A stretch of DNA of 64,000 nucleotides from a virus (taxonomy: Duplodnaviria > Caudoviricetes): IMG/VR virus record IMGVR_UViG_3300024181_000005, positions 706 through 64,705 of that record. The stretch is one strand, 5' to 3'. The position numbers and the translations under genes are program-made. This document shows, piece by piece, positions 27,975-42,663 of this stretch; the first letter of the stretch is position 1; every line of letters starts with the position of its first letter. The notes beneath the pieces are model-generated. The model made no database searches. It worked only from the letters and a program-made list of their open reading frames with translations, and was not told where the DNA came from.

Positions 27975-29264
27975 TTACTCTCCTGTCACTCGTGCTGCTG
28001 ACGGGTCCGCCGCCCATTCGGCGGGGTCGATACGCCACGGTCGAGGTTCTCCACCGTCTTCGGGGTCCTGCGGCATGTCCTTCTGCATCCGGCCCCAGTG
28101 CTCCGAGCCGATCCCCTCGCGGGCGAACGCGTCAACGCGCGAGCGGATGGTGCAGCCCCGGTCGAACTTCGCCATGAAGCCGCACGACCCGGTCTGATAG
28201 CAGACGGGTCGGATGGCGTCCGCGAACAGCTCGTACTGCCAACCGTCACTGGGCCAGACCTCAGCGTCGGCGGGTACATACACGTTCACTCGGAGTTCTC
28301 CGGCCCGCTCGCGCAGCGCCTTCGCGACCCCGCCGAACAGCACACGCCAGTCGAACTGCGCCTGCGTGCAGGTGCGCTTCCCGGCCTCCATGATCAGGGT
28401 CCGCAACGACACTGTCCAGTACAGCCGCGTCGTGATCGCGTGCGGGAGCACCCCCCGCGCTTCCTCCGCAGGCAAGCCTGCCGCCACGAGCGCGGCGTAG
28501 CTGTCTTCGGCCGCGTTCAACGACTTGAGCCAGATGCGGACGCGCGGGTCGTCATCCTTGAGGCAAGCCAGCGCGGGCGGGAGGGGGACTTCCTGCGCCC
28601 AGTCCTCCGCGACGGCGAAGCGCAGCGATTCCTGTGCAAAGAACGAGAAGCGGTTGCGCACCATCTGATGCGTGATGCCTCGCGACACGCCCTCGATGAG
28701 GAACGTGAACTGCACCGCCTCGAGCGGCCCCGACAGCACGGTCGCCATCATCGCCTCATACGCCTCGCGGCGCTCCGCGTCGGTCACCTCGCTCTTGGCT
28801 CGGCGCACCTTCCCCTCGTACATCCCGCAGAGCACCGCGAGCGTCCCGAGCGGGTCCGTAGGCGCATCGATGAGCGTGACCGTGATGCCCTTCCGCGCAT
28901 CCTCGGGCATCGGGGCCCGAGCATACTGGGCCACGTCTGCCACCCGAACCGGTAGATGCCTGCGCGTGAAGCCTGCGTGCTCGGCCTCGGGGTACCCGCA
29001 GCGACGCAGGTCGTTACCCACCCCCGGATACAGGTCCGTGTCGTTCACAGTGAACGAGCAGTGCCCGGTCCCGTCGTCCTCGAACAGGTGCAGCACGGTA
29101 TTGATGAGATGCGTACGGTTCGCCTCCGGCCCGGGGTTGGCGTGCTCCCGGCTCGGCCGGTTGCAGAACTCGAAGCCGTTTACCGTTAGATGCCGAGCTG
29201 CACACAGCGTGCGGACCCCGTCGTCCTCGTACGTGTGGTCGAGGATGAGTTCGTCATCGGGCAT
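27975..29264 (-). CDS. thyX: ThyX-family flavin-dependent thymidylate synthase-like protein with Cys/His-repeat N-terminal extension
   Basis: FLIEGVSRGITHQMVRNRFSFFAQESLRF (RHRx7SxR motif with H->N); ARGVLP. Confidence 0.85.
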   Translation of the reverse strand: MPDDELILDHTYEDDGVRTLCAARHLTVNGFEFCNRPSREHANPGPEANRTHLINTVLHLFEDDGTGHCSFTVNDTDLYPGVGNDLRRCGYPEAEHAGFTRRHLPVRVADVAQYARAPMPEDARKGITVTLIDAPTDPLGTLAVLCGMYEGKVRRAKSEVTDAERREAYEAMMATVLSGPLEAVQFTFLIEGVSRGITHQMVRNRFSFFAQESLRFAVAEDWAQEVPLPPALACLKDDDPRVRIWLKSLNAAEDSYAALVAAGLPAEEARGVLPHAITTRLYWTVSLRTLIMEAGKRTCTQAQFDWRVLFGGVAKALRERAGELRVNVYVPADAEVWPSDGWQYELFADAIRPVCYQTGSCGFMAKFDRGCTIRSRVDAFAREGIGSEHWGRMQKDMPQDPEDGGEPRPWRIDPAEWAADPSAARVTGE

Positions 29265-29403
29265 TGTACTTGACCCCTCCGTGATTGAGGCACGTCTGAC
29301 GCCCCTCGTTGGGCTGCTTGGTACCGTCGGCGCACAGCACCTTGTCCCCACAGCCTGCCAGCAGACCGACGACCAGCGCCAGCACTACCGCCGTCCTCTT
29401 CAT
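29254..29403 (-). CDS. 49-aa lipoprotein (DUF3761-like C.DGT...C..HGGV motif)
   Basis: MKRTAVVLALVVGLLAGC lipobox; ATGA overlap; absent from ORF track. Confidence 0.75.
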   Translation of the reverse strand: MKRTAVVLALVVGLLAGCGDKVLCADGTKQPNEGRQTCLNHGGVKYNAR

Positions 29404-29696
29404 GAGATGTCCATCCTGATCCTCTTGACGATCGGGTACGCAGCCAGGTTGGGCCGCATCAGAGCGTCGGGCTTATAGAACACGTACACCACGACCGGGT
29501 GCTCGAGGTCACGACGGCCGAACACCACCGTAGAGGCCCGGTACCCGCGCTCGGCCGCCGCCGCATAGACGTACCCACGAAACGACTCGGCCTCGCACAG
29601 GAACTCGGAGCCTCGCTGGGCCCGGTACGCCTTCCCGGGCTCGAGGGGCTGCACATTGCCCAGCAGCCATCCGTACTTGCTGTTCTGCCACTTCAT
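29400..29696 (-). CDS. Hypothetical protein (possible small DNA-binding fold)
   Basis: 98 aa; preceded by the ACTCGGCCGGGAGG start-associated motif. Confidence 0.7.
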   Translation of the reverse strand: MKWQNSKYGWLLGNVQPLEPGKAYRAQRGSEFLCEAESFRGYVYAAAAERGYRASTVVFGRRDLEHPVVVYVFYKPDALMRPNLAAYPIVKRIRMDIS

Positions 29697-29742
29697 CGCA
29701 GCCTCCCGGCCGAGTGGCCCGGCTTCTCCTCCGGACCGTGCG

Positions 29743-29827
29743 CCACCTAGGTAGGACTCGAACCTACGCCTTCCCGGCTACCCGATGCGTGACACGGGTG
29801 ATGGTCTCCTGTCAGAGACACTAGGTG
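29743..29827 (-). ncRNA. tRNA-like element 1 (atypical 85-nt cloverleaf)
   Basis: Acceptor CACCTAG/CTAGGTG, T-arm GTAGG-TTCGAGT-CCTAC, short D arm, 10-nt anticodon-type loop, variable stem; trailer G-CGCA. Confidence 0.65.
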
Positions 29828-29892
29828 ACCCTCCGCCCACTACTGCGGAGAGGCGGGGCGGGAGATGCCGGGTTCTCACCGCCCCTGCAAAG

Positions 29893-30072
29893 CTACTTCT
29901 TCTTCAGAGCCTTGACGATCTTGCCGAACAGGCCCTCTTTCTTCGGCTGTCCTACCGGCTTCCCGTCGCGTACGGCGCGGCGGTCAGAGCCCTTCGCGTA
30001 GCGCGGTCCGTTCGGCCCGGTCCGGCCTTCTCGACGCCACTGCGGGAGCATGTCGTCCCAGTCATTCGGCAC
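29893..30072 (-). CDS. 59-aa basic protein
   Basis: GTG with GAAAGG RBS; ends in amphipathic GLFGKIVKALKKK. Confidence 0.55.
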   Translation of the reverse strand: MPNDWDDMLPQWRREGRTGPNGPRYAKGSDRRAVRDGKPVGQPKKEGLFGKIVKALKKK

Positions 30073-30154
30073 CCCAGCACCTTTCTCTCGACCCCACTAC
30101 CTAACCGTACCCCTACCACCGAACGCAACCCCCGCAGCGCTCCAGACCCGCCTA

Positions 30155-30856
30155 CTACAGCTCGTCGGCGTCGTACGGGATGCGTGAGCCCGACAAGGCG
30201 ACCCCGCGCGACAGGTTCGCCACGATGAGTTCGGCGAGCCCGCGTACCGACAGCCCTCGAGCAGCCTCGCCCTGCATACGCGTGAGGGGCCCTGAGAACG
30301 CCGCTGCGGCATCAGCAGTCATCGGGGTACCCGCCAGCAGCCCCGGCTCGTAGACGTACGCGAGCAGCCCCTCGCGGGCCCGCAACGACTCGCGGGCCTC
30401 GCACCGCACCGCCATCGAGAGCGCAGCCTTTGACGCGCAGTACGCGGCCGAGCCGGTACGCGGGATGTGCGCCGAGTTCGAGCTGATCGCCACGAAGTGC
30501 GCGTAGCCCTGCGTCTCGCCCCACCCACCCCGCTCCCTCCGCAGGAGAGCCCGATACGCAGCCAGCAGCCGCAGGTTCCCGGTGACGTTACCGTCGAAGT
30601 GCGCGGCCCACCACGAGGCTGTCGAACCCACCCAGTCTCCCTGCGGGATGTTGACGCCAGCCGTGCTCACAATGAACCGAGGGAGGACCGGGAGCAGCAC
30701 GGAATCCATTGGATCGCTGTCTGTGAGGTCCAGGTACACCGGTTCGCCACTCACGCCTGCGCACACAGGCTCCATCCCGACACGCAGCACCTCGTCGCGA
30801 ACCGCCTCCCCGAGGCTTCCGGCCCGAGCCCCGACAATCAGCACGCGGGCGGTCAT
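30155..30856 (-). CDS. Short-chain dehydrogenase/reductase (SDR)
   Basis: GARAGSLG Rossmann, STAGVN, ISSNSA, YCASK catalytic motif. Confidence 0.9.
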   Translation of the reverse strand: MTARVLIVGARAGSLGEAVRDEVLRVGMEPVCAGVSGEPVYLDLTDSDPMDSVLLPVLPRFIVSTAGVNIPQGDWVGSTASWWAAHFDGNVTGNLRLLAAYRALLRRERGGWGETQGYAHFVAISSNSAHIPRTGSAAYCASKAALSMAVRCEARESLRAREGLLAYVYEPGLLAGTPMTADAAAAFSGPLTRMQGEAARGLSVRGLAELIVANLSRGVALSGSRIPYDADEL

Positions 30857-31524
30857 GCCTCGTCCCGCAGGTTCACACGCGGCTTCAGGTAGATCTGTCG
30901 CATGGTGTCGTTGCCCAGGAAGTACCCGAACACGCCGTACTGACTCTGGCAGGTCATCGTGTGCAGGCAGGCGACGTCGTGCATGTGCTGCACGGCCGAG
31001 CTGTACGCGCCTCGCAGGGTCTGCTCGGGCTGCACCTTCACGGCCTTAAAGCTCAGATGTGGGATGGGGTAGCGCGAGACCGGCAGGCCGTTCCAGCTCT
31101 GGCCGCTCGGCTGCCAGAGCGCCTGATGCAGCGGGCTGAAGCCCATGATGCCTGCGGCGTCCGAGCTCAGCATCATGACCTCCAGCCGGTACCCGTAGTC
31201 GGGGTGGCTGAAGAATCGGTAGTCGACACAGTACCGGGTGCCGAACGGGCTCGTGGAGACCACGTCGCGGTCCTCGTTGAACGCGGTCCAGCCGTTCGCC
31301 TCGAGGTAGATCGACAGCTCGCCCCGGTGCCAGGGATCGGGCACGAGGATGGCCGCCTCATCGATGAAGGCGTCTTTGGGGAGCCGGTTCTGATAGTGCG
31401 CGATCCAGGTGCTGATGGCCAGCGTGTTCGCGGTCATGTCGGCTTCGGTGTTGAACACGACCGGTCGCCGGAACGCAGGCACGTTCTCGACCATGTCGTT
31501 GAGCTGAAAGTCGTTGTCCAGCAT
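30853..31524 (-). CDS. Hypothetical enzyme, possibly VOC/glyoxalase-like
   Basis: Start ATG 31524; LEVMM, HLSFK, YLKPRVNLR segments; fold assignment is inference. Confidence 0.5.
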   Translation of the reverse strand: MLDNDFQLNDMVENVPAFRRPVVFNTEADMTANTLAISTWIAHYQNRLPKDAFIDEAAILVPDPWHRGELSIYLEANGWTAFNEDRDVVSTSPFGTRYCVDYRFFSHPDYGYRLEVMMLSSDAAGIMGFSPLHQALWQPSGQSWNGLPVSRYPIPHLSFKAVKVQPEQTLRGAYSSAVQHMHDVACLHTMTCQSQYGVFGYFLGNDTMRQIYLKPRVNLRDEA

Positions 31525-31526
31525 GG

Positions 31527-34500
31527 TTACTCCGAGGGTGTCAGGATGTGTATTTCCTTGGCGGTGATGGCCCGCCGGTACTCGGCTCGCTTGTAGCCCC
31601 GGACCAGCACGAGGTCTCTCTTGAGGTCGATGTCCCAGATGTCGTCCTTGTGTTTGTCGTAGAATCCGTCCCAACGCGGGACCGTGATGACCAGCGGCCC
31701 GGTCTCGTCCTCCCCCGTGATGACGACATAGTTGACGTACTGCGGTTGCTTCACCTTCTTCGGGTCGAGCTCCTCGCCGGTTCGTGACCGGTGCAGCTCG
31801 TAGATGTCCTTCATGTTGAGCAGCGTCACCCGACCGATCCAGGTGTGCTCGCCTGGCTTCGCCTCGTACGGAACGTCCTCGCTGCGGGAGGAGGGGTACG
31901 GGAGGGAGAAGCGTTCGCCGTTGTCGTTCAGCCACCGCCGCATCTTCGTGAGCTGCTTCGTGAGCGTGTAGATGCCGAAGGGGTCTGCCTGCGCGGCGAA
32001 CTCCTGCACCTTGACCAGGGTGGCCGCGCCGACGCCCTTGACGCCCCGGCCCGTCTTCGGGTCGCTCTGGTAGTCGACCCATTCCATGTCAGCGGGGTCA
32101 ACGCGCGCGGCGGCAATCTCGTTCTCGCGCCATTCCACCATCAGGCCAGCCGTCTTCTCGCCGATGCCCGGGACCTGCACGAGGCCCGCCCGCAGGCCCT
32201 CACCCTCAATCGACCACTGAATCTGACTCGCTCCCGGATCCGGCGGTAGAACCGCGAGGCCCGTGGCCGCAACCTCCTTCAGGATGTCCAATGCCTTCTC
32301 CTTGTGTGAAGGGCCGCTGAACTGCTGCAAACTCGCGCAATAGAAAGCCAACGGGTGATGCACCTTGAGCCACATCGTCCAGTAGGCCAGCATCCCATAG
32401 GAGACACAGTGGGCAGCATTGAAGGCGTACGCACCAGCCGTGACGAGTTGTTTCCACACACGGGCAGCAACAGCCTCACGCACCCCGCGCTCGGTGCACC
32501 CCGCCAAGAACTTCCCCTGAAGTCTGTTGAAGGCTTGCTCGCCTTGCTTTTTCGAGATGAGCTTCCTGACGAGCGCGGCTTCCTCCCATGTGAACCCTCC
32601 CAGCTCCCGCACCGTCCGCAGGATCTGCTCCTGATAGACGATCTGGCCTTGTGTCGTTTCGGTTATCTCGGAAACTACGGGGTGGAGTTTCTCGACGATC
32701 TTCTTCTTATGCTTGGCCATGATGTACTCAGCCGCAGCCCCAGAGTGCAGCGGGCCCGGCCGAGCGAGAGCGTTAATGTCACAGACTTCGGCGAATGTGT
32801 CCGGCTTGACCTCACGATTGACGCTGCGCATCGCGCGGCCATCAAATTGAAAGATACCGATGACACGGTTAGCTCGGAACCCCTCGTACACCTTCTCGTC
32901 ATCCAGAGGTACCGCATACAGCTCCTCCAAGCTCATCCCGATGTACTCGAGAGCGATAGCGATGATGCCCATGGTGGTCAGGCCCAGCGCATCAATCTTG
33001 AGCACGTTCAGATACTCGGCGTCGTACTTGTCGATAGACAGTACCTCGCCGATCTTCTTGCCACGTCCTTCCTGCGCCTTCTTCGCGGTCTCGTAGCGCA
33101 CATAGACAGCCAGGTTATCGGTCAGCCGACCATTCGCCACCACGAGGCCCGCCGCATGCACCGAGAACCCCTTCAAGTTCCCCTCGAGGCGCTGCGCGTC
33201 CTTCAGCTTGGGATACTTCTCGAACGCGTCGCGTACCTTCGGGAACAGCGCGATGCTGTCCTCGATGGTCTGGCCTGCGCGCAGGTCACCCGAAGACCGT
33301 ACGAGGATGGAATCCTTGACGCTCTCTGCCACGCCGTACGGGATCTCATGCACGCGGGCCACATCATCGATGCTGTTCTTGCCCTTGTACATCGTGAAGG
33401 TACCGATGTTGCCGACGTGGTCCGCCCCGTACATGTCAACGAGGTGCTCGCGCACCCGGTAGCGCTGGCGGTCGTCGAAGTCCAGGTCGATGTCCGGTAG
33501 GTCGTGCCGGTTGATATCGATGAACCTCTCGAATATTAGGTTGGGGAACAGCATCGGGTTGACTTCGGTGATGCGCAGCAGCCAGCACACGAGCGAGGCC
33601 GCCGCCGAGCCTCGGGCGGGCCCGACGGGGATGCCGTTCGTCTTGCTCCACACCACCATTTCCGAGATGACCAGGAAGTAGTCGACGAACTGCTTGAGGA
33701 TGATGAGGTCAGCCTCGCGCTTAAGCCGGGCCAGGCACCGCCTGCGCTCCTCGCGGCCGAGGTGTTGCAGACCGCGATACGACCAACCTTCCCGCAGCCA
33801 TCGGTGGAACAGCTCTACCGAGGGTATCTCGCCCGGAAACACGAGGTCCTTCAGCTTGGGCAGCGTGACGGAGCAACGATCGGCTATCTCCAGTGACGTT
33901 CCGATGGCACGCTCCGCCACCGAGCGGCGTAGCCCGGTCTCCAGTAGTCCCTCGTATACGGCATCACCCGTCTGGTGAGCCAGCAGGATGCCATACTCCC
34001 AGCTCTGCGCCTGAGCCTCGACCGTGTTCTTGTTTCCTCGCCGGTCAATAGCGTGCAGGAGCGGGTAGATGTCCTGGTCCTTGGCCGTCGGATAATGCAC
34101 GTCTCCCGTGACGACGAGTGGAATGGCGAGGCGGCCTCCAATGCGTTCGAGCGCAACATTGTACGCACGCTGCTTTTCGAGCAATGGGTGCGCTTGTACT
34201 TCCAGGTAGTATCGATCTCCGAATATCTCTCGGAACTGACTGGCCACACGCATACCCGCACGCAGATCCGCCGCATGTTCCGCTTCCCCCTTCCCTCCCA
34301 TCACCGCAGTAGCGAGCCGCCCACCCAGGCAGCCCGACAACACGATGAGCCCGTCGCTGTGGTTGGCCAGCATCTCCCCCGTCGTGGTCGGCTTGTAGTG
34401 GTGGTTCTCCCACGATTCGGAGACCACGCCGTACAGGTTCGAAAGCCCGCGCTGGTCGGCGGCCAGCACGGTCAGGTGGTGCTTCGTCTGGCCCCGAGCA

Positions 34501-34721
34501 TCGCCGGTATCGCAGTACAGCTCGCAGCCCTTGATGTCCTTGATACCGGTCTTGGCCGCCGCCTGTTCTGCCTTCACGTGCGGCGACACGTTCCCATGCT
34601 CGGTGAAAGCCCGAGCCACGATTCCCATGTCGGCGCATGCCTCCATGTGGTCGATAGGCATCATGAACCCATCGCCGGGGCTGAACGTCGTATGGGCATG
34701 CAGCTCGGCGCGCTTCCTCAT
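31527..34721 (-). CDS. dnaE: DNA polymerase III alpha subunit (DnaE-type) with PHP domain
   Basis: LHAHTTFS..DG, GPARGSAAASLV, DLPDIDLDF, KIDALGL; start fixed by ATGA overlap. Confidence 0.95.
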   Translation of the reverse strand: MRKRAELHAHTTFSPGDGFMMPIDHMEACADMGIVARAFTEHGNVSPHVKAEQAAAKTGIKDIKGCELYCDTGDARGQTKHHLTVLAADQRGLSNLYGVVSESWENHHYKPTTTGEMLANHSDGLIVLSGCLGGRLATAVMGGKGEAEHAADLRAGMRVASQFREIFGDRYYLEVQAHPLLEKQRAYNVALERIGGRLAIPLVVTGDVHYPTAKDQDIYPLLHAIDRRGNKNTVEAQAQSWEYGILLAHQTGDAVYEGLLETGLRRSVAERAIGTSLEIADRCSVTLPKLKDLVFPGEIPSVELFHRWLREGWSYRGLQHLGREERRRCLARLKREADLIILKQFVDYFLVISEMVVWSKTNGIPVGPARGSAAASLVCWLLRITEVNPMLFPNLIFERFIDINRHDLPDIDLDFDDRQRYRVREHLVDMYGADHVGNIGTFTMYKGKNSIDDVARVHEIPYGVAESVKDSILVRSSGDLRAGQTIEDSIALFPKVRDAFEKYPKLKDAQRLEGNLKGFSVHAAGLVVANGRLTDNLAVYVRYETAKKAQEGRGKKIGEVLSIDKYDAEYLNVLKIDALGLTTMGIIAIALEYIGMSLEELYAVPLDDEKVYEGFRANRVIGIFQFDGRAMRSVNREVKPDTFAEVCDINALARPGPLHSGAAAEYIMAKHKKKIVEKLHPVVSEITETTQGQIVYQEQILRTVRELGGFTWEEAALVRKLISKKQGEQAFNRLQGKFLAGCTERGVREAVAARVWKQLVTAGAYAFNAAHCVSYGMLAYWTMWLKVHHPLAFYCASLQQFSGPSHKEKALDILKEVAATGLAVLPPDPGASQIQWSIEGEGLRAGLVQVPGIGEKTAGLMVEWRENEIAAARVDPADMEWVDYQSDPKTGRGVKGVGAATLVKVQEFAAQADPFGIYTLTKQLTKMRRWLNDNGERFSLPYPSSRSEDVPYEAKPGEHTWIGRVTLLNMKDIYELHRSRTGEELDPKKVKQPQYVNYVVITGEDETGPLVITVPRWDGFYDKHKDDIWDIDLKRDLVLVRGYKRAEYRRAITAKEIHILTPSE

Positions 34722-34984
34722 GAGGCCCACCACATCCATACCGGGCGGGCCCCGTCGGTATTCTCGCCGCACGGTATCTCCCTGCTACTGCCAGGGATCT
34801 TATACATCCAGCCCCTCTCAGGGACGAAAGATCGGACCACCGCTCCCTGTCTCGTCGCGGACCAGAAGAGCTGCCCGTGAAAGGCCTCAAGCGCTCCAGG
34901 TGCGCAGAGATGCTCGACACGGAATATCGATGTTTCCCATTCGGTCTCCCAGCCCATCCGGGGGACCGCCACATACATCTGCAT
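34718..34984 (-). CDS. Hypothetical Trp-rich protein
   Basis: 88 aa; coupled to dcd stop (TGATG) and to dnaE start. Confidence 0.55.
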   Translation of the reverse strand: MQMYVAVPRMGWETEWETSIFRVEHLCAPGALEAFHGQLFWSATRQGAVVRSFVPERGWMYKIPGSSREIPCGENTDGARPVWMWWAS

Positions 34985-35508
34985 CACTGAGCCGCCGGGG
35001 TGGCCTTTACCTGGCCCTGGTAGTGCGAGTTGAGTTCGGGGTGCCCGTAGGGGCGGGTGGCGGGCCAGTCCAGCCGCTCGAAGGTAATCTGGCAGATCGG
35101 CATGCCTGCGGTGAGGGGGATGGGTCCGGGCGACAGGTTCACGAGCTCGAGGGTGAGCGTTCCTTCGAAGCCGGGGTCCACCAGGCCAGCGCACTCGACC
35201 TGCAAGCCGAGCCGGGCCAGCGTGCTCTTGCCGTACACCTGGCCGACATAGCCCCGGTCGAGCCTGACGTGCTCCTGGGTGGCGCCGAGCACGAACCGAC
35301 CGGGCTGCAAGACGTAGTCGGAGGTGTTGAGCCACCCGATGTCGCGATGGTCGGCTGGCTTGTGCATGGCCGAGAACGGCACGTAGAAGCTGCGGCTGAG
35401 CCGAAGATCCACGCTGCACGGCTGGAAGGCGCGGTCCAGCGGATACGGTTCGATGGCCAGCTCGCTCTTGTCGAGCAGGGCCCGGATGGTGCCGTCGCTG
35501 AGCTTCAT
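34984..35508 (-). CDS. dcd: dCTP deaminase
   Basis: QPCSVDLRL, GKSTLARLGL, AGLVDPGFEG.LTLE, ICQI.F. Confidence 0.95.
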   Translation of the reverse strand: MKLSDGTIRALLDKSELAIEPYPLDRAFQPCSVDLRLSRSFYVPFSAMHKPADHRDIGWLNTSDYVLQPGRFVLGATQEHVRLDRGYVGQVYGKSTLARLGLQVECAGLVDPGFEGTLTLELVNLSPGPIPLTAGMPICQITFERLDWPATRPYGHPELNSHYQGQVKATPAAQ

Positions 35509-36110
35509 GGCTTCCCCTTCACGAACGCATCGACTTCCAGGAGAGCCTGAAAGTGTTCGAACAGCAACGGCCGGTTCCGCTGCTGATACAGCCCGTAGGC
35601 CGGATGGTGCAGCGGCAACAACGGCGTGTCACCGAGCCAGCACCATTCGCCTACAGTCATCTTGGCGTTGGGCAGGTACAGGTACTCGGGCAAGAGCGAG
35701 GCTGCGCGCTTGGCGTGCTTGCCGAGCACCACCATAGGCGGTCGGCCGAGGATGGCCCACTCCTTGCGGAGAAACGGAATGCTGACGAACAGCTCCGCAT
35801 CAGTGGGCGGTCGGTTGCGCCGATTGTCGTCGACCGGCCGGTACTTGACCGTGTTCGTGATGAACACGTCCGTGCGCAGCAGCCCGACCGACGCCAGCAG
35901 CTCTTCGAGGAAGCGACCGGAGGCACCGATGAACGGCAATCCGAGCTTGTCTTCGTTCTGCCCCGGCGCCTCGCCGACGAACATGAACCGGGGCCGCACG
36001 GGGCCCGCACCGCGCACGAGACGCGAGCCTGCGGCCCGCATATGCGCCAGCCCGTCTTCGGCCTCGTACTCGGCGTACAGCCGGTTCAACAGCACCCTAC
36101 GATGGGTCAT
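35505..36110 (-). CDS. Uracil-DNA glycosylase family 4-like, lacking Fe-S cysteines
   Basis: VGEAPG, PFIGASG, TNTVKYRP, HHPAY. Confidence 0.9.
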   Translation of the reverse strand: MTHRRVLLNRLYAEYEAEDGLAHMRAAGSRLVRGAGPVRPRFMFVGEAPGQNEDKLGLPFIGASGRFLEELLASVGLLRTDVFITNTVKYRPVDDNRRNRPPTDAELFVSIPFLRKEWAILGRPPMVVLGKHAKRAASLLPEYLYLPNAKMTVGEWCWLGDTPLLPLHHPAYGLYQQRNRPLLFEHFQALLEVDAFVKGKP

Positions 36111-36507
36111 GGTCGGTCACGGCCAGCAGCGGCCCGCCTTTCTTGCGAATCAGCGGGTACACCCGGTCGACACCATCCCCCGTCCGCACCCGCAGAACGG
36201 TCGCCGAGCCGCGCTCACCCATCTCGTCGACGATGACCCCGAGCCCTTCCTCGGCCAGCCAGCCCAGAATGACCTTGTGGTGGCGTGCTTCTGGATCTGA
36301 CCCCATAAAGTGGGCTAGCGGCACCCGCACGGTCAGCTCAACAAACGGCTCAAGAGGCGGGATGCCATCACACCACGTCTGTCCAACCTGCACGCGTCGA
36401 CCCGAAGCCGAGACAGGTACGAACTCCCCAACGCTGGCATGCCGCTCATGCAGCTCGACGTTCCCGCAGTGCTTGTTCGGGCCCTGCGGGATCACTGACG
36501 TCCCCAT
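36097..36507 (-). CDS. Hypothetical protein with Cys/His motif
   Basis: CGNVELHERH...WCDG. Confidence 0.55.
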   Translation of the reverse strand: MGTSVIPQGPNKHCGNVELHERHASVGEFVPVSASGRRVQVGQTWCDGIPPLEPFVELTVRVPLAHFMGSDPEARHHKVILGWLAEEGLGVIVDEMGERGSATVLRVRTGDGVDRVYPLIRKKGGPLLAVTDHDPS

Positions 36508-36956
36508 CGGTTCCCCTCGTCTAGGTTGGCGATCATGAATGCGCAGAGCGCGCCGAGGTCTTGCAACGTGTCCATGGCGGCCTCGCCGCCGTCAATCTGC
36601 GCGGTCTCCAGCGTGTAGTCCCGCCAGAGCATGTTCTCGAGCCGTGCAGCCTTGCTGAGGATGCGAGCGAGGTTGCCCATATAGCCCTGCTGCTGCCAGG
36701 CATCCCCGTAGCCCGCGCTCTTCTTGATGATAAGGTCGCGCACCTGAGCGGTGAACGCATCCCATGCCTGCACGGCCGGGATGGTGTCGGTAGCGTGGAC
36801 CGGCCGACCCGCCGCGGAGAACACGGGCTCGTCGAGAATGAGATCCTTCAGGATGGGGCGGGGGTTGGAGTGGTTCGGGCTGGACTGCGGCTGGCCACAG
36901 CCGGGCCTCCCGCAGCGCGAGCCAATGACGTCGAGGAAAGCGTGCTGGCTCACCAT
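36492..36956 (-). CDS. Nucleotide-modification-associated domain 1 (DUF1599-like, all-alpha NTP pyrophosphatase fold)
   Basis: KKSAGYGDAW...RILSKAARLEN...DTLQDLG. Confidence 0.75.
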   Translation of the reverse strand: MVSQHAFLDVIGSRCGRPGCGQPQSSPNHSNPRPILKDLILDEPVFSAAGRPVHATDTIPAVQAWDAFTAQVRDLIIKKSAGYGDAWQQQGYMGNLARILSKAARLENMLWRDYTLETAQIDGGEAAMDTLQDLGALCAFMIANLDEGNRWGRQ

Positions 36957-37474
36957 GACCAGACCACCATCACAAGCTTGGCCACGACCAGCAACGCTCC
37001 GACCGCCAGCGACCACGTGAGCACGTCGAGCGCCGTGTGCTTGACCGCGAAGTGCCAAGCCGGATCCATCAGCCGGTTGGGGCGCACCTCTTCAGCATCG
37101 CCCTTCTGCGAGACGAGCCACTGCTCGTGTTCCATGTCCTCGGTCATCGCGGCGAACTCCTCGTCGACGTGGCGGTCGGTCAGGTCAATCGTGGGCTGCG
37201 CGGCTAGCTCGGCAAACGCGTCATCGCGCGCCAGTGCCGCCAGCCCCTCGCGCACTTCGAGGTCTTCGAGGCGCTTGTATAGATCCGGTGTCGACTGACC
37301 CGCGACACGGTTCTTGTTCCTGCTCCACCAGCGAGGCCGCCGGTGAGCCTTCGGACCGATCATTGCCCTGCCCTCTCTATTCACGGTCACATAATGCGGG
37401 CGACCATTGATGGTGTCAATGCGTACCGGCGACCCGAAGCTGGCCGCCATCTGAAACTCTTCGAGCGTGTTCAC
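36950..37474 (-). CDS. Hypothetical protein with C-terminal TM helix
   Basis: GTGA overlap start at 37474. Confidence 0.55.
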   Translation of the reverse strand: MNTLEEFQMAASFGSPVRIDTINGRPHYVTVNREGRAMIGPKAHRRPRWWSRNKNRVAGQSTPDLYKRLEDLEVREGLAALARDDAFAELAAQPTIDLTDRHVDEEFAAMTEDMEHEQWLVSQKGDAEEVRPNRLMDPAWHFAVKHTALDVLTWSLAVGALLVVAKLVMVVWSW

Positions 37475-38124
37475 TGCGCATCCTTCCATTCGTCCAGCCA
37501 ATGCCGGAACACGGTCAACGTGTCCTGTTCGTCGGAGACACCCGGAACGCCAACCATGTCGCCGTGACGCAATTCCGCCCACTGCGTCATGTTGTGGTCT
37601 CGAACCGCGAACGCTGTCCGCAACCCGAGGCCGAGAGCCTGCTGGCACATCTCGGGGAGATCATCGAGAACCCCTACAATGCGTTGCTTGCCGATGGTGC
37701 GCACGAGCTCACGGTACTTGTGTTCGCCCCAGATGACACCCTGATAGACCACTCCATTGCGTCGGAGATTGTGTCTAGTGGCATCATCGACTTGGTCGTG
37801 GGACAGGTACGGGCGGGTCGTGCAGAGCCACACATCGCAGCCCCACCGACGCAGGGTTCGCGTCAGGTCGTCCGCCTGCGGATAGGGGGGCCGGAGGAGC
37901 GGTAGTGAGCGCTTCAGCTCGCCGCGCCGGTAGGCAAGCTTGCACTTGCGATACGACACCTTGGACACCTTGAGGTAGGTGTGCAGCGGCACCCGCGCGT
38001 CGTACTCGTAATACGACGGCTCCGAAGGATCCCAGGTCCCGAAGTAGTCCGCTGCGAACCGCAGGAAGTGTCGATAGTAATCGAGCAACGTCCCATCGAT
38101 GTCCAACGCCATCACCGGCTTCAT
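37471..38124 (-). CDS. HAD-superfamily 5'-nucleotidase-like phosphatase
   Basis: ALDIDGTL, CTTRP, K, VLDDLP motifs I-IV. Confidence 0.85.
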   Translation of the reverse strand: MKPVMALDIDGTLLDYYRHFLRFAADYFGTWDPSEPSYYEYDARVPLHTYLKVSKVSYRKCKLAYRRGELKRSLPLLRPPYPQADDLTRTLRRWGCDVWLCTTRPYLSHDQVDDATRHNLRRNGVVYQGVIWGEHKYRELVRTIGKQRIVGVLDDLPEMCQQALGLGLRTAFAVRDHNMTQWAELRHGDMVGVPGVSDEQDTLTVFRHWLDEWKDAQ

Positions 38125-38999
38125 ACCTCGCCCCTTGCCATGGCTGCATACAGACCTGTCGGAGTACGCCACGGACCCGGGAGATGGGCCATGAGAGTGC
38201 GCCCCATCGTCTCGGCGAACATAGTGTCCCCTCGGTGTAGGTTCGTCGGCTTGTCCCGCACGGGAAACGTACGGTTGAAGTGCGAGTCGTAGGCAAGCCA
38301 CACCGGCTCTTTCAACCGAGGGGTATTGACGTCCCGCCAGTGCGTCCCGCGAAAGGCTTGTCGCATGGCAGGCGAGCGATACGGCACCCGGACTTGGACG
38401 CCAATCTCCTTGCCCAGAGCCACGAGCGCCTGACTGCACGACCGGTCTTCCTCCCAGTAGATGCGGCGAAGTTCGTCGATGCGCTGGCTGTCCCGGTCCT
38501 CGCTCACGGGCTTCCGCTGCGGCCCGGGGACACCGTGAGCCCGGTCATAGTTGCGTGCCATCCAATTGTTGTTGATGTAGTACCCGTCGGCCTGGTCTCC
38601 GGTGTACAAGATGCTCACCCCCGCTCTGTCCGCAGCCCGCAACACCCCCAGCATCGGGGCCAGACACTCGACCTGGAGCTTGGTCTTATACCCGCGCTTC
38701 GTGAGCACCTGCGCATCGTGCTTCAAGCTATGCACGTCCATGGGCACCACCGCAGACACGAACGTCAGGCCGCAAGCCTCCGACGTCTGCTCGGCATACT
38801 GATGGTCGATGGTGTCGTGCGTGTCTGGTCTATAGCTGACGACTACCGGTACGATGCCATTGTCCAGCAGCGCACCGAGCACACTGCACGAGTCTACGCC
38901 ACCACTGAGCGCGATACCGATGCGACCACCATTGCGCTGACTGGTCTCCTTTGCCAGGCATTCTCGGAGCTGTCGCGCCACGCCTGCGGCCACGCTCAT
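38121..38999 (-). CDS. Asparagine-synthase-like ATP-dependent ligase domain (no glutaminase domain)
   Basis: ALSGGVDS PP-loop, TGDQADGYY, RVPY, LKEP..L. Confidence 0.85.
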   Translation of the reverse strand: MSVAAGVARQLRECLAKETSQRNGGRIGIALSGGVDSCSVLGALLDNGIVPVVVSYRPDTHDTIDHQYAEQTSEACGLTFVSAVVPMDVHSLKHDAQVLTKRGYKTKLQVECLAPMLGVLRAADRAGVSILYTGDQADGYYINNNWMARNYDRAHGVPGPQRKPVSEDRDSQRIDELRRIYWEEDRSCSQALVALGKEIGVQVRVPYRSPAMRQAFRGTHWRDVNTPRLKEPVWLAYDSHFNRTFPVRDKPTNLHRGDTMFAETMGRTLMAHLPGPWRTPTGLYAAMARGEV

Positions 39000-39793
39000 C
39001 GCAGCACCTCGAGCGCGTCGGAGTAGGCAGTGTGGACCAGGACACCCTTCTGCCACTTTCCGTAGCGACCGAGGCGGTGCCAGCGACCCGAGCTTGTCCG
39101 GCAGTCGCAATCGGTCTTCAGCGGCTTCTCAACGCGCACGACACCCGCAACCGGGGGTTTGACGCCCTGCGGCCATTCGAGGGTGCTGTGGCCGAACACC
39201 GTGGCCGCGCGGTACCACCGAGGCGCCTCGTGGGCATTGCACCACACTGTATTCGGCGAGGCAACATAGGGCAGCGCGTTCCCCGGCGCCGAGCCCATGG
39301 CCCAGACCATCTGCGTGTCGAACGCGTGCTGTGGGTTGCGGCAGATGACGTTCGCCGGGATGGTCGACAGCACGATGCATGACCGGTCAACGAAGAGCTG
39401 CTCAACGTTGCTGGCGTTCAACAACGCGGGCTTGATCAGGGGCAGCCAGCTCTGCCAGAGCGCGTCGTAGGCTGCGCGCAGGTCCCAGGCGAGGTGTGGC
39501 TCTTCGGGTCCGAACTCGTCCGGGCTGACTCGACCCTGCCAGCCTCCGCCGTACACCTTGTATCGATAGTCCTCGGGGGAGCCGTCCAGCACATACGACA
39601 CGGGGGTGCCGTCGCCTTCGGTGATCCCCGGGATGGCCGCGTGCAGGTACTGGCACCCGTAGAGCTGGCTCTTGCGGGGCTGTCCGCTCGGGCCGGGAGC
39701 CGTGAGTACGTACACCTCATAGCCTTGCTTGCTCGCTGCATGCGCGGCCAGCAGACCCGCCGGACCCGCACCCAGCACGACGACCGTACGCAT
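38996..39793 (-). CDS. FAD-dependent oxidoreductase (loosely UDP-galactopyranose-mutase-like layout)
   Basis: VVLGAGPAGL dinucleotide motif, G..YLH, C-terminal LGRYGKW. Confidence 0.8.
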   Translation of the reverse strand: MRTVVVLGAGPAGLLAAHAASKQGYEVYVLTAPGPSGQPRKSQLYGCQYLHAAIPGITEGDGTPVSYVLDGSPEDYRYKVYGGGWQGRVSPDEFGPEEPHLAWDLRAAYDALWQSWLPLIKPALLNASNVEQLFVDRSCIVLSTIPANVICRNPQHAFDTQMVWAMGSAPGNALPYVASPNTVWCNAHEAPRWYRAATVFGHSTLEWPQGVKPPVAGVVRVEKPLKTDCDCRTSSGRWHRLGRYGKWQKGVLVHTAYSDALEVLR

Positions 39794-39807
39794 TCTCCGT
39801 CGAAATA

Positions 39808-42663
39808 TCATTCTTCCTCCATGTCTCTCACAATGCGAATCAGTTCGGGCGTCATGTTGATGTAGCCCTTACTGCGGCGGCGGACCATGCCCATGCGCAG
39901 CAGCTCGCCGACGGCTTGGCTGGCCATCTCTCTATCCATGCTCCCGAACTCTTCGAAGTCCCGGGCTCGGAACTGCGTGTCGTTAATCGCGGTAGCCAGC
40001 GTCTTCAAGACGCCTTCGTGGGCCGCGAGGAAATGCCGACACTGCTCGCTGTACCGCTCCGCGTTGGCCTTAGCCCGAATCTCCTTCTTGCTGTGGTCAC
40101 CGTACCCGAACCACCGTTTGCCGTACAGCTCATCGAGAAGCTGGACCGCCGTGTCAACATGCTCGCTCTTCACCAGCACCGACAGCCCTTCGCCCTCGTG
40201 GCTAAAGAGCCTGGCCGCCACCGCTACTGACAGGCGTGCGAGCTTCACGCGCACGTTCTCTGGCTGAATCAGAGGCGGGTCCGCGACGTACCTCCCACCC
40301 AGCTCCTCCGCCGCAGACAAGACTCGGCGCTCGGCACCCCGACCCCAGAGCACCTGTTCGGGCGTGCGACTCCAGGCCCATGTGACCAGGGCAGAACACA
40401 GGCCCTGCGTGGCGCGTGGCGGAGCCTTCGGCGGCGTGGCACTGTTGATGATGCTGGACTGCACGTCGTCCTGGGCGGCCACCATCGCGAAGTCGAACCG
40501 CGCGACGTCCTCGGGGTTGGTGATGAGCTTCTGAATGGCGTCGATGGCCCCATTGTTGGTCGCTTGAATCGGTCGACCGTCCGGGGGATTGCTAATCCAG
40601 ATCGTCCGGGTACGGGCGAACGTTTCCTGCTGCACGACCTTCGTGACCTGCGCGCGCCCCGAGCTGCGCACCGCGCTCATCTGCTCGATGATGTTCTTGT
40701 CGCTGATGCCGGACACCTCGTCGAGAATGACAAGCCTGCGGTCTTGCAGGGGAATGGTACCCCAGGTGATCACCCAGGAGTTCCCGATCTGTTGCGCACC
40801 ACCCACGAGCCCGGCGAGCGTCGCACCCTCGCAGCTCTTGAGCACGCCACACTGATAGTGGTGCCGGAGACGCTCCGCAGCCTCGCTCTTTCCGGTACGG
40901 GTGTCTCCCATGACAAGGAGCTCCAGCCAGCCCTTACCGAGACGATTACCCCGGAAGGGAAAGTCCAGCACGGAATGCCAGACCAGATCGTAGGCAATGT
41001 GCAGCTCGGGGCGTCCGTAGATATGCGTGACGTTGGCGGCCAGGTCCCGAGCCAACTCAGATAGCTTGTCCATGGGAGTTTGGCTGGGTCCGGGTTGGAA
41101 GACATCCTCTAGGGCACCCCGCAATTCTTCCGTCATCTCGAATCTATCGAGACTGGTTTTGGTCTCCTCGCATTGCCAGCTCTGGAAGACCATGTGCCCG
41201 CTCTTCGGGGAGGCGGTCGAGACCCCGGTCAGGCGGGCGGTGGTATTGACGGGCGTGAGCTTGCCGGACTCTGTGACGTTGAACACGCGCCGCAGTACCT
41301 GCTCGCCCTCACCCTCGTTCGGGTCGTCAACATTCGGGATCACCGCCAGCTCATCAACGCGCCATTGATCATGTGGCGTGATCTCCACACGAGGGCAGGT
41401 TGCCGGGATCTCCAATGCGCGCAGCATTTCTGACGTGCGTTCCTTGTCAGCCATGTCGAGCATCTTCAGGAGCAGGCGATCGTCAGCCGGTATCTCGTGC
41501 TTGTGCTCGCCGCCCCACATGGTCTCCATAGGGCAATTGCTGCACTTCGTCTTCTGCCAATCCTGCCCACAGTGCAACTCGAACCTGCGGAGGAGGGCGG
41601 TAGGGGTGGCGCTGCGTCCGCTGATCGTGGCCACCATGGCGATCGGCTTGTCCAGCAGCGCGGGGTCGAAGCTGTTGCGCATACGGATGTCAGGTACGTC
41701 ACCCGCCACAACCGCGCGCTCGCGGCTCAGCTTGCGTTCGCGGTACGGCGGGGTGGCCTTGCACAGGTCGATGAAGCTCTGCCTGCCGTAGCCTTGGTTG
41801 ACGAAGTAGTCGGTGAAGTCGTTACCCCGCACCGTGAGCGGCAACTTGACGATGTAGATAGCCTCGGCGGTACGCCGCAGGTGGTTGGCGACCTTCCTGG
41901 ACCCCGCGTCGCCCTGGTCGTCAACGTCGTACACAATGTAGACGATCTTGCCGATGAACAGCCCGTCCCATTCTCCCATCCAGGTCCCGGCACCTGCGGT
42001 GGCGGAGAGGGTGGGGAAACGGTATTGCCGACCGATCAGCTTGTCCATCTCACCCTCGGTCAGAAACACTCGCTTCTGTGTGAGAGCATCGAGGCCGTAC
42101 AACGCGGCATCGCCATAGCCAGGCCAGTTCACCATCTTGTTCGCCTTGAGGCCCATGCCGTACCGGCGCACGTTGACCAGCTCGCCCTCGGCGCTGAACA
42201 CCGGGATGGTGATGCGCTCTCCGTCCCAGCCGAGCCGGTACCGCGCGATAGTGCTACGCTGCAATCCCCGACGGGTCAACAGGTCTTTCATCACATCGGC
42301 CTTGCCCAGCAGGCGGGCCGACCAGGCGTTCAACTGCTCGTCGTCGGGGAGCGCCACCGTGAGGCCCTCGGCACGCTGCTTGCGGCGCCTGCGGGCCCCT
42401 ACCTCGTCGAGGGGCTTGCCGTCGGTACGCCGCTCCGGGAGCATGCCCTTGTCAACGATCGACCAGAGCTGGCCGAGGCTGTAACCCCCGCAGCGGCTGA
42501 AGCAGTTGAACGTGCCCTTGTCGAAGTTGAAGCTGGCACTGGGTGTGCTGCTGCTCTCCGGGTCTTCGTGTGCAGGGCAGTAGCCCCGCGTCTCGCCGTC
42601 GGCCTCATCTCGGACGACCCATTTATGGAATCGTCGTCGCCAGCCAGCCCCGGATGTCCCCAT
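39808..42663 (-). CDS. Primase-helicase fusion: Zn finger + TOPRIM + MCM-type AAA+ helicase
   Basis: CPAHED...FNCFSRCG; TEGEMD, YDVDDQG; GDTRTGKS, GLVGG, ILDEVS, VARFD. Confidence 0.85.
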   Translation of the reverse strand: MGTSGAGWRRRFHKWVVRDEADGETRGYCPAHEDPESSSTPSASFNFDKGTFNCFSRCGGYSLGQLWSIVDKGMLPERRTDGKPLDEVGARRRRKQRAEGLTVALPDDEQLNAWSARLLGKADVMKDLLTRRGLQRSTIARYRLGWDGERITIPVFSAEGELVNVRRYGMGLKANKMVNWPGYGDAALYGLDALTQKRVFLTEGEMDKLIGRQYRFPTLSATAGAGTWMGEWDGLFIGKIVYIVYDVDDQGDAGSRKVANHLRRTAEAIYIVKLPLTVRGNDFTDYFVNQGYGRQSFIDLCKATPPYRERKLSRERAVVAGDVPDIRMRNSFDPALLDKPIAMVATISGRSATPTALLRRFELHCGQDWQKTKCSNCPMETMWGGEHKHEIPADDRLLLKMLDMADKERTSEMLRALEIPATCPRVEITPHDQWRVDELAVIPNVDDPNEGEGEQVLRRVFNVTESGKLTPVNTTARLTGVSTASPKSGHMVFQSWQCEETKTSLDRFEMTEELRGALEDVFQPGPSQTPMDKLSELARDLAANVTHIYGRPELHIAYDLVWHSVLDFPFRGNRLGKGWLELLVMGDTRTGKSEAAERLRHHYQCGVLKSCEGATLAGLVGGAQQIGNSWVITWGTIPLQDRRLVILDEVSGISDKNIIEQMSAVRSSGRAQVTKVVQQETFARTRTIWISNPPDGRPIQATNNGAIDAIQKLITNPEDVARFDFAMVAAQDDVQSSIINSATPPKAPPRATQGLCSALVTWAWSRTPEQVLWGRGAERRVLSAAEELGGRYVADPPLIQPENVRVKLARLSVAVAARLFSHEGEGLSVLVKSEHVDTAVQLLDELYGKRWFGYGDHSKKEIRAKANAERYSEQCRHFLAAHEGVLKTLATAINDTQFRARDFEEFGSMDREMASQAVGELLRMGMVRRRSKGYINMTPELIRIVRDMEEE

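Follow-up and report, generated by a model that had tools for sequence, protein, structure and literature searches.

A chain of minus-strand genes spanning positions 27975 to 42663 of the analysed window surrounds the replicative polymerase gene of a tailed phage and includes a stand-alone ATP-dependent ligase whose sequence marks it as a homologue of CmoY, a phage enzyme that caps a carboxyl-bearing base in DNA. The window is the whole stretch of DNA that was analysed and covers 64,000 bases of a virus record (IMGVR_UViG_3300024181_000005) that is 64,705 bases long and that CheckV rates as 100% complete; its GC content is 62 to 68%, and practically every gene lies on the minus strand. Read along that strand, the chain runs from a primase-helicase through a two-domain flavoenzyme-fold protein (here called OR), the ligase, a HAD-superfamily phosphatase, three small genes (g5, g6, and g7), a uracil-DNA glycosylase (UDG), a dCTP deaminase, the DnaE-type DNA polymerase III alpha subunit, a further small gene (g11), a short-chain dehydrogenase/reductase (SDR), and g14 to a long, divergent member of the ThyX family. 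This order was set by listing open reading frames (ORFs), by a frame-specific GC3 plot, and by inspection of start codons, and the same procedure recovered, on the minus strand and at or near the positions it had given them, every gene named in an earlier account made by a model from the letters and an ORF list (the sequence-only reading). That account had described one coupled operon. Tight coupling holds for two blocks, in that the genes from primase to dCTP deaminase overlap by 4 to 16 bases and DnaE, g11, and SDR abut or overlap, but the chain is broken twice, by 211 bp before DnaE (34773-34983) and by 458 bp after the SDR (29697-30154), both non-coding. The region has no nucleotide-level match among GenBank phages by megablast; the closest protein matches of DnaE and OR, at 37 to 46% identity, come from phages of Streptomyces, Arthrobacter, Microbacterium, Mycobacterium, Gordonia, and Nocardia.

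The ligase (38121..38999, minus strand; 292 amino acids [aa]) carries the PP-loop signature SGGVDS at residues 32 to 37, a motif invariant in 41 aligned sequences, and matches the Pfam family Asn_synthase weakly. A single-sequence search of the PDB with this protein returned nothing, and a search with the 41-sequence profile returned carbapenam synthetase CarA, AsnB, and ASNS. Its AlphaFold2 (AF2) model (pLDDT, 94.5) resembles human and Escherichia coli asparagine synthetase in their synthetase domain (Foldseek TMq, 0.67 to 0.70) and aligns only with the C-terminal domain of these 500-aa enzymes. The start codon overlaps the OR stop (ATGA), and because the protein is 292 aa long, there is no room for an N-terminal Ntn glutaminase domain. 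The signature, the AsnB/ASNS/CarA synthetase-domain fold, and the length thus agree with the label given to it in the sequence-only reading, an Asn-synthase-like ATP-dependent ligase without glutaminase.

Its relatives place the protein more narrowly. In a tblastn search of GenBank phages, full-length matches were found at 23 to 29% identity, in phages only: Erwinia and Dickeya jumbo phages, a Yersinia phage, Staphylococcus phage vB-SscS-F1, and Synechococcus phages S-B05 and S-B43; no actinophage was matched in this search. In the four phage loci examined, the ligase homologue directly adjoins a gene annotated as a methyltransferase, which its NCBIfam match marks as CmoA (TIGR00740, E values of 1e-33 to 1e-49); a homologue of a DNA cytosine methyltransferase is a further neighbor in S-B43 and in the Staphylococcus phage. 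The S-B43 protein, SpCmoY, ligates glycine to 5-carboxymethylcytosine in DNA with ATP, both in vivo and in vitro, by adenylating the carboxyl group of the base and then joining glycine to it (PMC12783734). When compared by hhalign, the window's ligase family matches SpCmoY with a probability of 99.1% (E = 4e-19 over 215 columns) and the CmoA-linked Erwinia homologue with a probability of 99.9% (E = 1.5e-35 over 268 columns), and the best PHROG is the same, 26038, for all five proteins compared (the window ligase and the CmoY or CmoA-linked homologues). Judged from these comparisons, the window ligase is a full-length CmoY homologue and, by analogy, would be an AMP-forming amide ligase that adenylates a carboxylate and joins an amine to it. 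Closer homologues (n = 55; 42 to 80% identity) all lie on contigs of no more than 67 kb, and a pattern-limited scan of 185,579 prokaryote species, represented by one genome each, found no relatives of the ligase. In the jumbo phage AD1 of Dickeya (L015, 5968-7023; the L numbers denote loci retrieved for comparison), a DgcN-like N-acetyltransferase gene (DUF1611; NF041892, E = 6e-84) stands between CmoA and the CmoY-like ligase, so that this particular CmoA/CmoY system may include an additional tailoring step.

The two partners of CmoY, which ordinarily produce the carboxyl group that it caps, are missing here: CmoA, a carboxy-S-adenosylmethionine synthase, and CmoX, a homologue of C5-cytosine methyltransferases with an SPPC motif and R350. 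Neither PF00145 (for CmoX) nor TIGR00740 (for CmoA) matched anything in the complete genome at an E value of ≤1, and both searches gave matches in control genomes. Likewise, 17 sequences gave no tblastn match (E ≤ 1) to any of four phage CmoA and two CmoX proteins, and nine metagenome loci gave none to three of these CmoA proteins (E ≤ 1e-4) or to the two CmoX proteins. The sequence-only reading had seen none of the known marker sets of DNA modification; this needs amending in that the ligase is itself a CmoY homologue, and it stands in that the CmoA and CmoX partners are absent. Pfam scans of the remaining ORFs of the genome returned only structural, lysis, recombination, and helicase families and no other recognizable modification enzyme. 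In the system of S-B43 (Yang et al., Nat Commun 2025, PMC12783734), CmoA, CmoX, and CmoY yield first 5-carboxymethylcytosine and then 5-glycyl-carboxymethylcytosine. The window shares with it a stand-alone AsnB-type PP-loop synthetase that lacks a glutaminase and falls into the same PHROG, whereas the window genome and the related loci have neither CmoA nor CmoX, their ligase neighbors OR, HAD, and g6 instead, and the target base is more likely a deoxyuridine derivative than cytosine. Because two of the three defining genes are absent, the window system resembles the last step of the CmoA/X/Y pathway but is not a member of it.

The setting of the ligase is conserved over long distances. We collected ligase loci by profile scans of IMG/VR and of metagenomes, distinguished about nine lineages, and mapped the window proteins onto them. 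Throughout these lineages (ligase identity down to 38%, GC content of 44 to 65%), the ligase always lies within a module of OR, HAD, g6, and DnaE. In one arrangement, which is that of the window, the order is primase-OR-ligase-HAD-(g5)-g6-(g7)-(UDG)-(dCTP deaminase)-DnaE-g11-SDR-(DUF4406)-ThyX, genes in parentheses being variably present; in the other, found in L022, L031, L032, and L035, the ligase follows g6. The full chain is syntenic in metagenomic relatives at protein identities of 27 to 79%, and the gene arrangement is therefore not due to chance. The sequence-only reading had named co-occurrence of these genes in relatives beforehand as the test of its proposal, and what we found is a module around DnaE that is both conserved and co-inherited. 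Two metagenome contigs with a GC content of 44.5% (L031 and L032) carry primase, OR, HAD, g6, ligase, DnaE, a g11-like gene, SDR, a MazG-like gene, and DUF4406, from which it follows that the module is not confined to high-GC, actinophage-like genomes. A MazG-like gene accompanies DUF4406 in several relatives; both are accessories of a kind typical of the handling of nucleotide pools, which counts in favor of a nucleotide-modifying role.

Beyond the ligase-bearing loci, a core of OR, HAD, g6, DnaE, and long ThyX is shared across cultured and very distantly related actinophages, including Mycobacterium cluster D and Gordonia cluster DV, and this neighborhood recurs in the annotated regions of Dryad, PBI1, Xenia2, Krampus, and Wollypog. 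OR was found in 126 GenBank phages (46 of Gordonia, 36 of Microbacterium, 32 of Mycobacterium, nine of Streptomyces, two of Arthrobacter, and one of Nocardia). Long ThyX genes are exactly as numerous as OR genes in Gordonia (46), Microbacterium (36), and Arthrobacter (2) phages, number 28 against 32 in Mycobacterium phages, and take a more divergent form in the Streptomyces group. The smallest version of the module (L010 and L011) consists of primase, OR, HAD, g6, DnaE, and long ThyX, and the genome announcement of Xenia2 lists the same phams, under generic names only, as common to clusters AE, BN, D, DG, DV, and EF (PMC11385102). Pseudomonas PB1-like phages, which have a canonical short ThyX next to DnaE, have no OR, HAD, or g6 nearby. 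PBI1, Xenia2, and L012 have no ligase and carry a small-molecule-type S-adenosylmethionine (SAM) methyltransferase in the interval from g6 to the SDR; conversely, this methyltransferase occurs in none of the ligase loci examined, so that the two genes are mutually exclusive in the loci examined, a pattern that is suggestive. The methyltransferase belongs to Methyltransf_11, with sterol, glucose, and lipid methyltransferases as its best PDB matches; as a candidate CmoA it was rejected, having no NCBIfam match and only generic small-molecule methyltransferases among its PDB matches.

The long ThyX-like protein (27975..29351, minus strand; 458 aa), called a nearby ThyX variant in the sequence-only reading, does belong to the family by its Thy1 domain (PF02511, E = 1e-30), and it scores 81.4 bits against TIGR02170, below the equivalog cut-off of 87.9. 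It consists of an N-terminal extension of about 135 aa, a ThyX core, and a Cys-bearing C-terminal extension (residues 350 to 458). Aligned to Thermotoga maritima ThyX (1O26), whose residue numbering we use, and then across its own family, the protein keeps the dUMP-binding set (R78, R80, S88, R90, R147, and R174), and its substrate is thus probably still dUMP. By contrast with the canonical enzymes (T. maritima 1O26 and Mycobacterium tuberculosis 2AF6), with which it shares the domain and these residues, it has H53 replaced by L, H79 by N, and H178 by Q (so that the RHR-x7-S motif reads RNR-x7-S), extra Cys residues, both extensions, and a score below the cut-off. The histidine losses are family-wide (the RHR position reads RQR or RSR in relatives), and the lost residues are ones that we take to sit in the flavin/folate/NADPH pocket; on these alignments, the cofactor side of the active site is changed across the whole family. 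One Cys directly after R174 and three in the C-terminal extension are present or absent as a set, being absent from the Microbacterium and Arthrobacter forms, and this covariation suggests a metal or Fe-S site. The N-terminal extension holds two similar Cys/His-bearing stretches, YEDDGVRTLCAARH and FEDDGTGHCSF; it is found in L006 and is missing from the cluster D and DV relatives.

OR (38996..39811, minus strand; 271 aa) is a Rossmann protein (GAGPAG) of a phage-specific family, phrog_8720 (E = 1.6e-75). Homologues number 477, and among the 120 listed none lies on a contig longer than 66 kb; invariant columns of the family include five Cys and many basic and aromatic residues (several Arg, Lys, Tyr, and His). 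The gene had been read as a flavin adenine dinucleotide (FAD) oxidoreductase, and its AF2 model (pLDDT, 94.5) indeed has a two-domain flavoenzyme fold of the GR2 type, the cofactor being a prediction. A single-sequence PDB search with OR matched the Rossmann motif only, and family searches matched its Rossmann N terminus weakly. UDP-galactopyranose mutases (UGMs) head the Foldseek matches to the model (E = 7e-9), and in a search independent of Foldseek the best match is UGM 4dsg (Z = 14.6; root mean square deviation, 3.6 Å over 250 of 271 residues), followed at Z = 11 to 13 by group-A monooxygenases, protoporphyrinogen and amine oxidases, and D-amino-acid oxidase; as modeled, the fold suits an oxidase or a mutase alike. 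The resemblance to UGMs lies in the two shared domains and presumably also in a C-terminal motif of those enzymes that is similar to GRYGKW in OR. OR differs from them in its length (271 aa versus 365 to 470 aa), in lacking their helical nucleotide-binding domain, and in its sequence (9 to 15% identity), and the family GLF was not among its Pfam matches. Another member of the fold class is PaMx11 gp47 (NGTO), an FAD oxidase with the GR2 fold whose substrate is a modified, flipped-out thymidine in DNA (PMC11472151); beyond the fold class, no specific sequence similarity between it and OR was found, 8Z2O not being among the best 60 of 180 profile matches.

Two enzymes of the chain bear on the uracil content of nucleotides and DNA. 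The dCTP deaminase (34984..35508, minus strand; 174 aa; PF22769, E = 8e-36) was correctly named in the sequence-only reading; among relatives, it is confined to the closest ones (L006, L007, and L024). The UDG (35505..36110, minus strand; 201 aa) is of the family 4 type (PF03167, E = 4e-28; motifs GEAPG and HPA, the latter as HHPA) and scores 111 bits against TIGR00758, whose cut-off is 125; with a single Cys in its 201 residues it has no four-Cys [4Fe-4S] site, just as its description as an Fe-S-less UDG4 implied. It occurs in some relatives only (L006, L007, L008, L022, and L024).

Downstream of DnaE lie g11 (30853..31524, minus strand; 223 aa) and a classical SDR (30155..30856, minus strand; 233 aa), always paired in this position in the ligase clade. 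The SDR is recognizable as such, in keeping with its original label, by PF00106 (E = 3e-9) and the motifs VGARAGSLG and YCASK; it belongs to the FabG-like phrog_3142 and has homologues in PBI1, Xenia2 (annotated as a FabG-like reductase), and most metagenomic relatives. For g11, found in L006, L007, L008, L017, L022, L028, L032, and L037, there was no Pfam, PHROG, NCBIfam, or PDB-profile match. Its family alignment has invariant E115, H133, and H156, a possible 2-His-1-Glu metal site, and its low-confidence ESM-Atlas model (pLDDT, 0.39) resembles VOC/HPPD clusters at TM scores of 0.44 to 0.47, which makes the VOC-like label of the sequence-only reading a weak structural lead; a relationship to the VOC-like proteins of L009 and L012 was rejected (hhalign probability, 0.2%).

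The HAD-superfamily protein (37471..38124, minus strand; 217 aa) had been called a HAD nucleotidase. The HAD assignment stands, its motifs DIDGT (D8 and D10), TTRP (T102), K136, and DD (D154-D155) being invariant in 12 sequences of relatives, but the term nucleotidase is unproven. The protein falls below the Pfam cut-off and matches phrog_415, the phosphatase part of polynucleotide kinase (PNK), at an E value of 7e-17, and annotators of the 83 GenBank actinophages that have it call it variously a phosphatase, a nucleotidase, or PNK. Subfamily placement by PDB profile was tried and gave only marginal, generic HAD matches. A second core member, g6 (36492..36956, minus strand; 154 aa), is a helical protein with the motif K-x3-YG-x8-G-x2-G-x7-K-x3-L-x4-W ... 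DL and one invariant acidic residue; jackhmmer recovers it from all loci that have OR, with PBI1 gp61, Xenia2 gp71, Dryad gp58, Krampus gp54, and Wollypog gp55 among the members. It had been labeled an NMAD1/DUF1599-like pyrophosphatase. An ESM-Atlas lead to DUF1599 clusters (score, 0.89; 192 of 256 features; TM score, 0.51), the nearest of which have PF07659 assigned to 32 to 55% of their members, makes g6 possibly DUF1599/NMAD1-like; 13 family members had no Pfam match at E ≤ 1, DUF1599 included, and a PDB profile search returned nothing. With an hhalign probability of 0.07% against the MazG-like family of related phages, and with its single invariant acidic residue where MazG-type enzymes have a set of acidic metal ligands, g6 is not detectably related to MazG-like proteins, and the pyrophosphatase label is therefore dropped. 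A search of the literature on DUF1599/NMAD1 and modified DNA in actinophages with ThyX-like proteins yielded nothing useful. In Dryad gp58 (L001, 12352-13368; 338 aa), the g6 domain stands at the N terminus and is followed by a long, charged extension that reaches the C terminus; extensions also follow the g6 core in Wollypog, Krampus, and PBI1.

The reading that we favor, with a rough probability of 0.45, is hypermodification of DNA at the thymine position, with ATP-dependent formation of an amide as its last step and with a carboxyl handle that comes from a route other than CmoA and CmoX. Its chemical steps are ones that we infer, the observations beneath them being the ligase homology, the absence of CmoA and CmoX, the synteny, and the pattern of ThyX residues. 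On this proposal, dCTP deaminase (or, in relatives, dCMP deaminase) would raise the pool of deoxyuridine nucleotides and so feed dUMP, and the ThyX-like enzyme would place a one-carbon unit on its C5, giving a product other than, or in addition to, dTMP. DnaE would incorporate that product, and UDG would remove stray uracil. OR, g11 (as a possible metal enzyme), and the SDR might then oxidize or extend the side chain to a carboxylate, which the CmoY-like ligase would adenylate on the DNA-borne base and cap as an amide, using either ammonia or an amino acid; in sister lineages, the SAM methyltransferase that takes the place of the ligase might convert this handle to a methyl ester. Intermediates at the nucleotide level, or else the competing canonical nucleotide, could be the substrates of HAD and g6. 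The sequence-only reading had placed the modification probably on a pyrimidine, and the dUMP-binding residues of the ThyX-like protein, dCTP deaminase, and UDG all fit that view, probably with thymine as the position concerned. Its purely pre-replicative scheme, in which modified dNTPs are made before polymerization, is not favored for the ligase step, because CmoY, the sole precedent, works on DNA after replication.

Precedents exist for parts of such a scheme. The pathways derived from 5-hydroxymethyldeoxyuridine (5-hmdU) in phages SPO1, PhiW-14, SP10, ViI, M6, and PaMx11 (PMC8989533, PMC11472151) likewise build on dUMP-derived C5 chemistry, keep uracil in check next to the replicase, and use tailoring enzymes that act on DNA. 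They differ from the window in that their C5 enzyme is of the ThyA type and not of the ThyX type; furthermore, Pfam scans of the window's ORFs, with no search using specific proteins, recognized no ThyA-type dUMP hydroxymethylase, 5-hmdU DNA kinase, or aGPT-Pplase, nor any radical SAM or pyridoxal phosphate enzyme. A chemical analogy comes from tRNA: MnmE and MnmG use flavin and methylene-folate to place a methylene on C5 of uridine, where it is trapped by glycine to leave a carboxylate-bearing side chain, and in the MnmC route to cmnm5U and nm5U a GR2-fold FAD oxidase trims the side chain. The analogy stops at the chemistry, as the substrate there is RNA and the proteins are unrelated to those of the window, in which no homologue of MnmE or MnmG was recognized.

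Several points weigh against this proposal. Identity between the window ligase and SpCmoY is only about 25%, and at that distance the acyl substrate may differ in kind and be, for example, a free nucleotide or a small molecule. The closest fold to OR, that of UGM, belongs to a non-redox mutase, and OR lacks the acidic residue that usually ends the second Rossmann strand, for which reason its cofactor is not certain; more generally, the roles given to OR, g11, SDR, HAD, and g6 are guesses from fold class. The exclusivity of ligase and methyltransferase is no more than suggestive because few, related lineages were sampled. ORF scans found no modified-dNMP kinase and no glycosyl- or amino-acid:DNA transferase, and the searchable literature yielded no report of modified DNA in cultured relatives. 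Finally, dCTP deaminase and UDG are also expected in a phage with ordinary thymine, and the core itself, with all dUMP-contacting residues kept, could be a plain thymidylate synthase with helpers.

That last possibility amounts to an ordinary nucleotide supply, which we consider a serious competitor that is nevertheless on the unlikely side. The ThyX-like protein would then be a thymidylate synthase fed by dCTP deaminase, UDG would guard T-containing DNA, OR would be a redox helper (for instance, the reductase for a ThyX without an NADPH site of its own), HAD and g6 would recycle nucleotides in the manner of the T5 5′-deoxynucleotidase, and the ligase, g11, and SDR would be unrelated accessories carried along in the early operon. 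Such a division of labor accords with the complete dUMP-binding set, with the loss of histidines on the flavin/folate/NADPH side together with four covarying Cys that suggest a metal or Fe-S center fed by a partner, and with the nearly 1:1 co-occurrence of OR and long ThyX; phages whose DNA is canonical commonly have a dCTP deaminase and a UDG, and the lack of a modified-dNMP kinase or transferase in the ORF scans points the same way. The helper role sits less well with OR, though, whose fold differs from those of known flavin reductases (UGMs and group-A monooxygenases match best) and which persists in Microbacterium and Arthrobacter phages whose ThyX-like proteins have none of the four Cys, while the canonical short ThyX of the PB1-like phages has no OR, HAD, or g6 nearby. 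Ordinary supply also leaves unexplained why a CmoY-family ligase has been held in the module across about nine deep lineages and why DUF4406, a methyltransferase, SDR, and g11 have been recruited to one place.

The module might instead make a small molecule (a nucleotide sugar, a cofactor, or a signaling nucleotide) for host takeover or counter-defense, which we judge distinctly unlikely. Its tools would then be a flavoenzyme resembling UGM, an SDR, a putative metal enzyme of the VOC type, a HAD enzyme acting on sugar or nucleotide phosphates, an amidoligase or methyltransferase, and a deoxyribosyltransferase-like protein. UGMs are the best structural matches of OR, the sister-clade methyltransferase is of a small-molecule class, the ligase has a weak match to the sugar amidotransferase WbuX (E = 0.07), and SDR, HAD, and VOC are classic folds of sugar-nucleotide tailoring; set against these are the absence of any nucleotidyltransferase or glycosyltransferase in the ORF scans and the absence from OR of the helical nucleotide-binding domain of UGMs. 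Moreover, the module always lies between primase and DnaE and is tied to a dUMP-binding ThyX-like enzyme, and the sole characterized relative of the ligase acts on DNA (PMC12783734). Modification of RNA, whether host tRNA or phage transcripts, seems very improbable: CmoA chemistry and the flavin/folate-dependent modification of U (TrmFO and MnmG) do stem from tRNA biology (PMC12783734, discussion), but the ThyX fold binds a mononucleotide, the genes lie in a DNA replication operon with UDG and dCTP deaminase, and the phage encodes no tRNA (ARAGORN found neither tRNA nor tmRNA anywhere in the window, the gap at 29697-30154 included).

Hypermodification of thymine positions through a carboxyl handle, the reading we favor, can be extended to a broader claim that we think unlikely in this full form: that a ThyX-family flavoenzyme, OR, HAD, and g6 together constitute a route to a carboxyl-bearing thymidine analogue that is independent of ThyA, TET, and CmoA and is present in over 120 cultured actinophages, among them those of Mycobacterium cluster D, with lineage-specific caps (an amide made by the ligase in the window clade, a methyl ester made by the methyltransferase in clusters D and DV, or none). 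The window system could be a DNA hypermodification system of the kind that combines a carboxyl handle with an amide ligase, and it could be more than that if the ThyX-based core were proven. It was not until late 2025 that carboxyl handles were described on phage DNA, and then solely in conjunction with CmoA and CmoX; a CmoY-type ligase fixed in another deeply conserved set of enzymes points either to a second route by which such handles are made or to a new substrate for the ligase family. The core adjoins the replicase in well over 100 phages of culture collections that are used in teaching and in research on mycobacterial phage therapy. If their DNA is modified, this would matter for the evasion of restriction, for sequencing artefacts, for host range, and for phage engineering, and a flavin-dependent entry point would be added to the chemistry of DNA hypermodification; if it is unmodified, the module still represents a ThyX of two components, or one dependent on helpers, for which there is no explanation as yet.

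The polymerase (31527..34772, minus strand; 1,081 aa), rightly identified in the sequence-only reading as a phage DnaE, has the Pfam PHP, pol3_alpha, finger, and HHH domains (E values down to 4e-60) and is 44 to 46% identical to that of Streptomyces, Arthrobacter, and Microbacterium phages. It is a single ORF in the window and is split in two in several relatives (L007, 12574-15958; L004, 14222-17573; L005, 14580-18456); in Wollypog the two parts flank a gene for an HNH endonuclease and a small ORF, and in Krampus and L007 they are set apart by a short gap. The primase-helicase (39808..42663, minus strand; 951 aa), whose stop overlaps the OR start, has a weak match to the MCM P-loop and precedes OR in all related loci, where it is 36 to 75% identical to the window protein. 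Of the small genes, g5 (36950..37474, minus strand; 174 aa), with a hydrophobic C-terminal segment and no Pfam, PHROG, or NCBIfam match, and g7 (36097..36507, minus strand; 136 aa), with no family match, have homologues only in the three closest relatives, at 27 to 35% and 38 to 45% identity, respectively. Between the SDR and the ThyX-like gene, g14 (29400..29696, minus strand; 98 aa) has no family match and no homologue in any fetched locus; its position is occupied in relatives by DUF4406, a deoxyribosyltransferase-like family (E = 4e-21 in L022, L008, and L017; also in L028, L031, and L032). A scan for operon promoters and terminators gave sites no more numerous than in shuffled sequences. 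In the structural half of the window (750-27839; 31 ORFs), one ORF has a Pfam ADP-ribosyltransferase exoenzyme domain (E = 3e-17) and another a prokaryotic JAB domain (E = 5e-13), the scan specifying the ORF in neither case.

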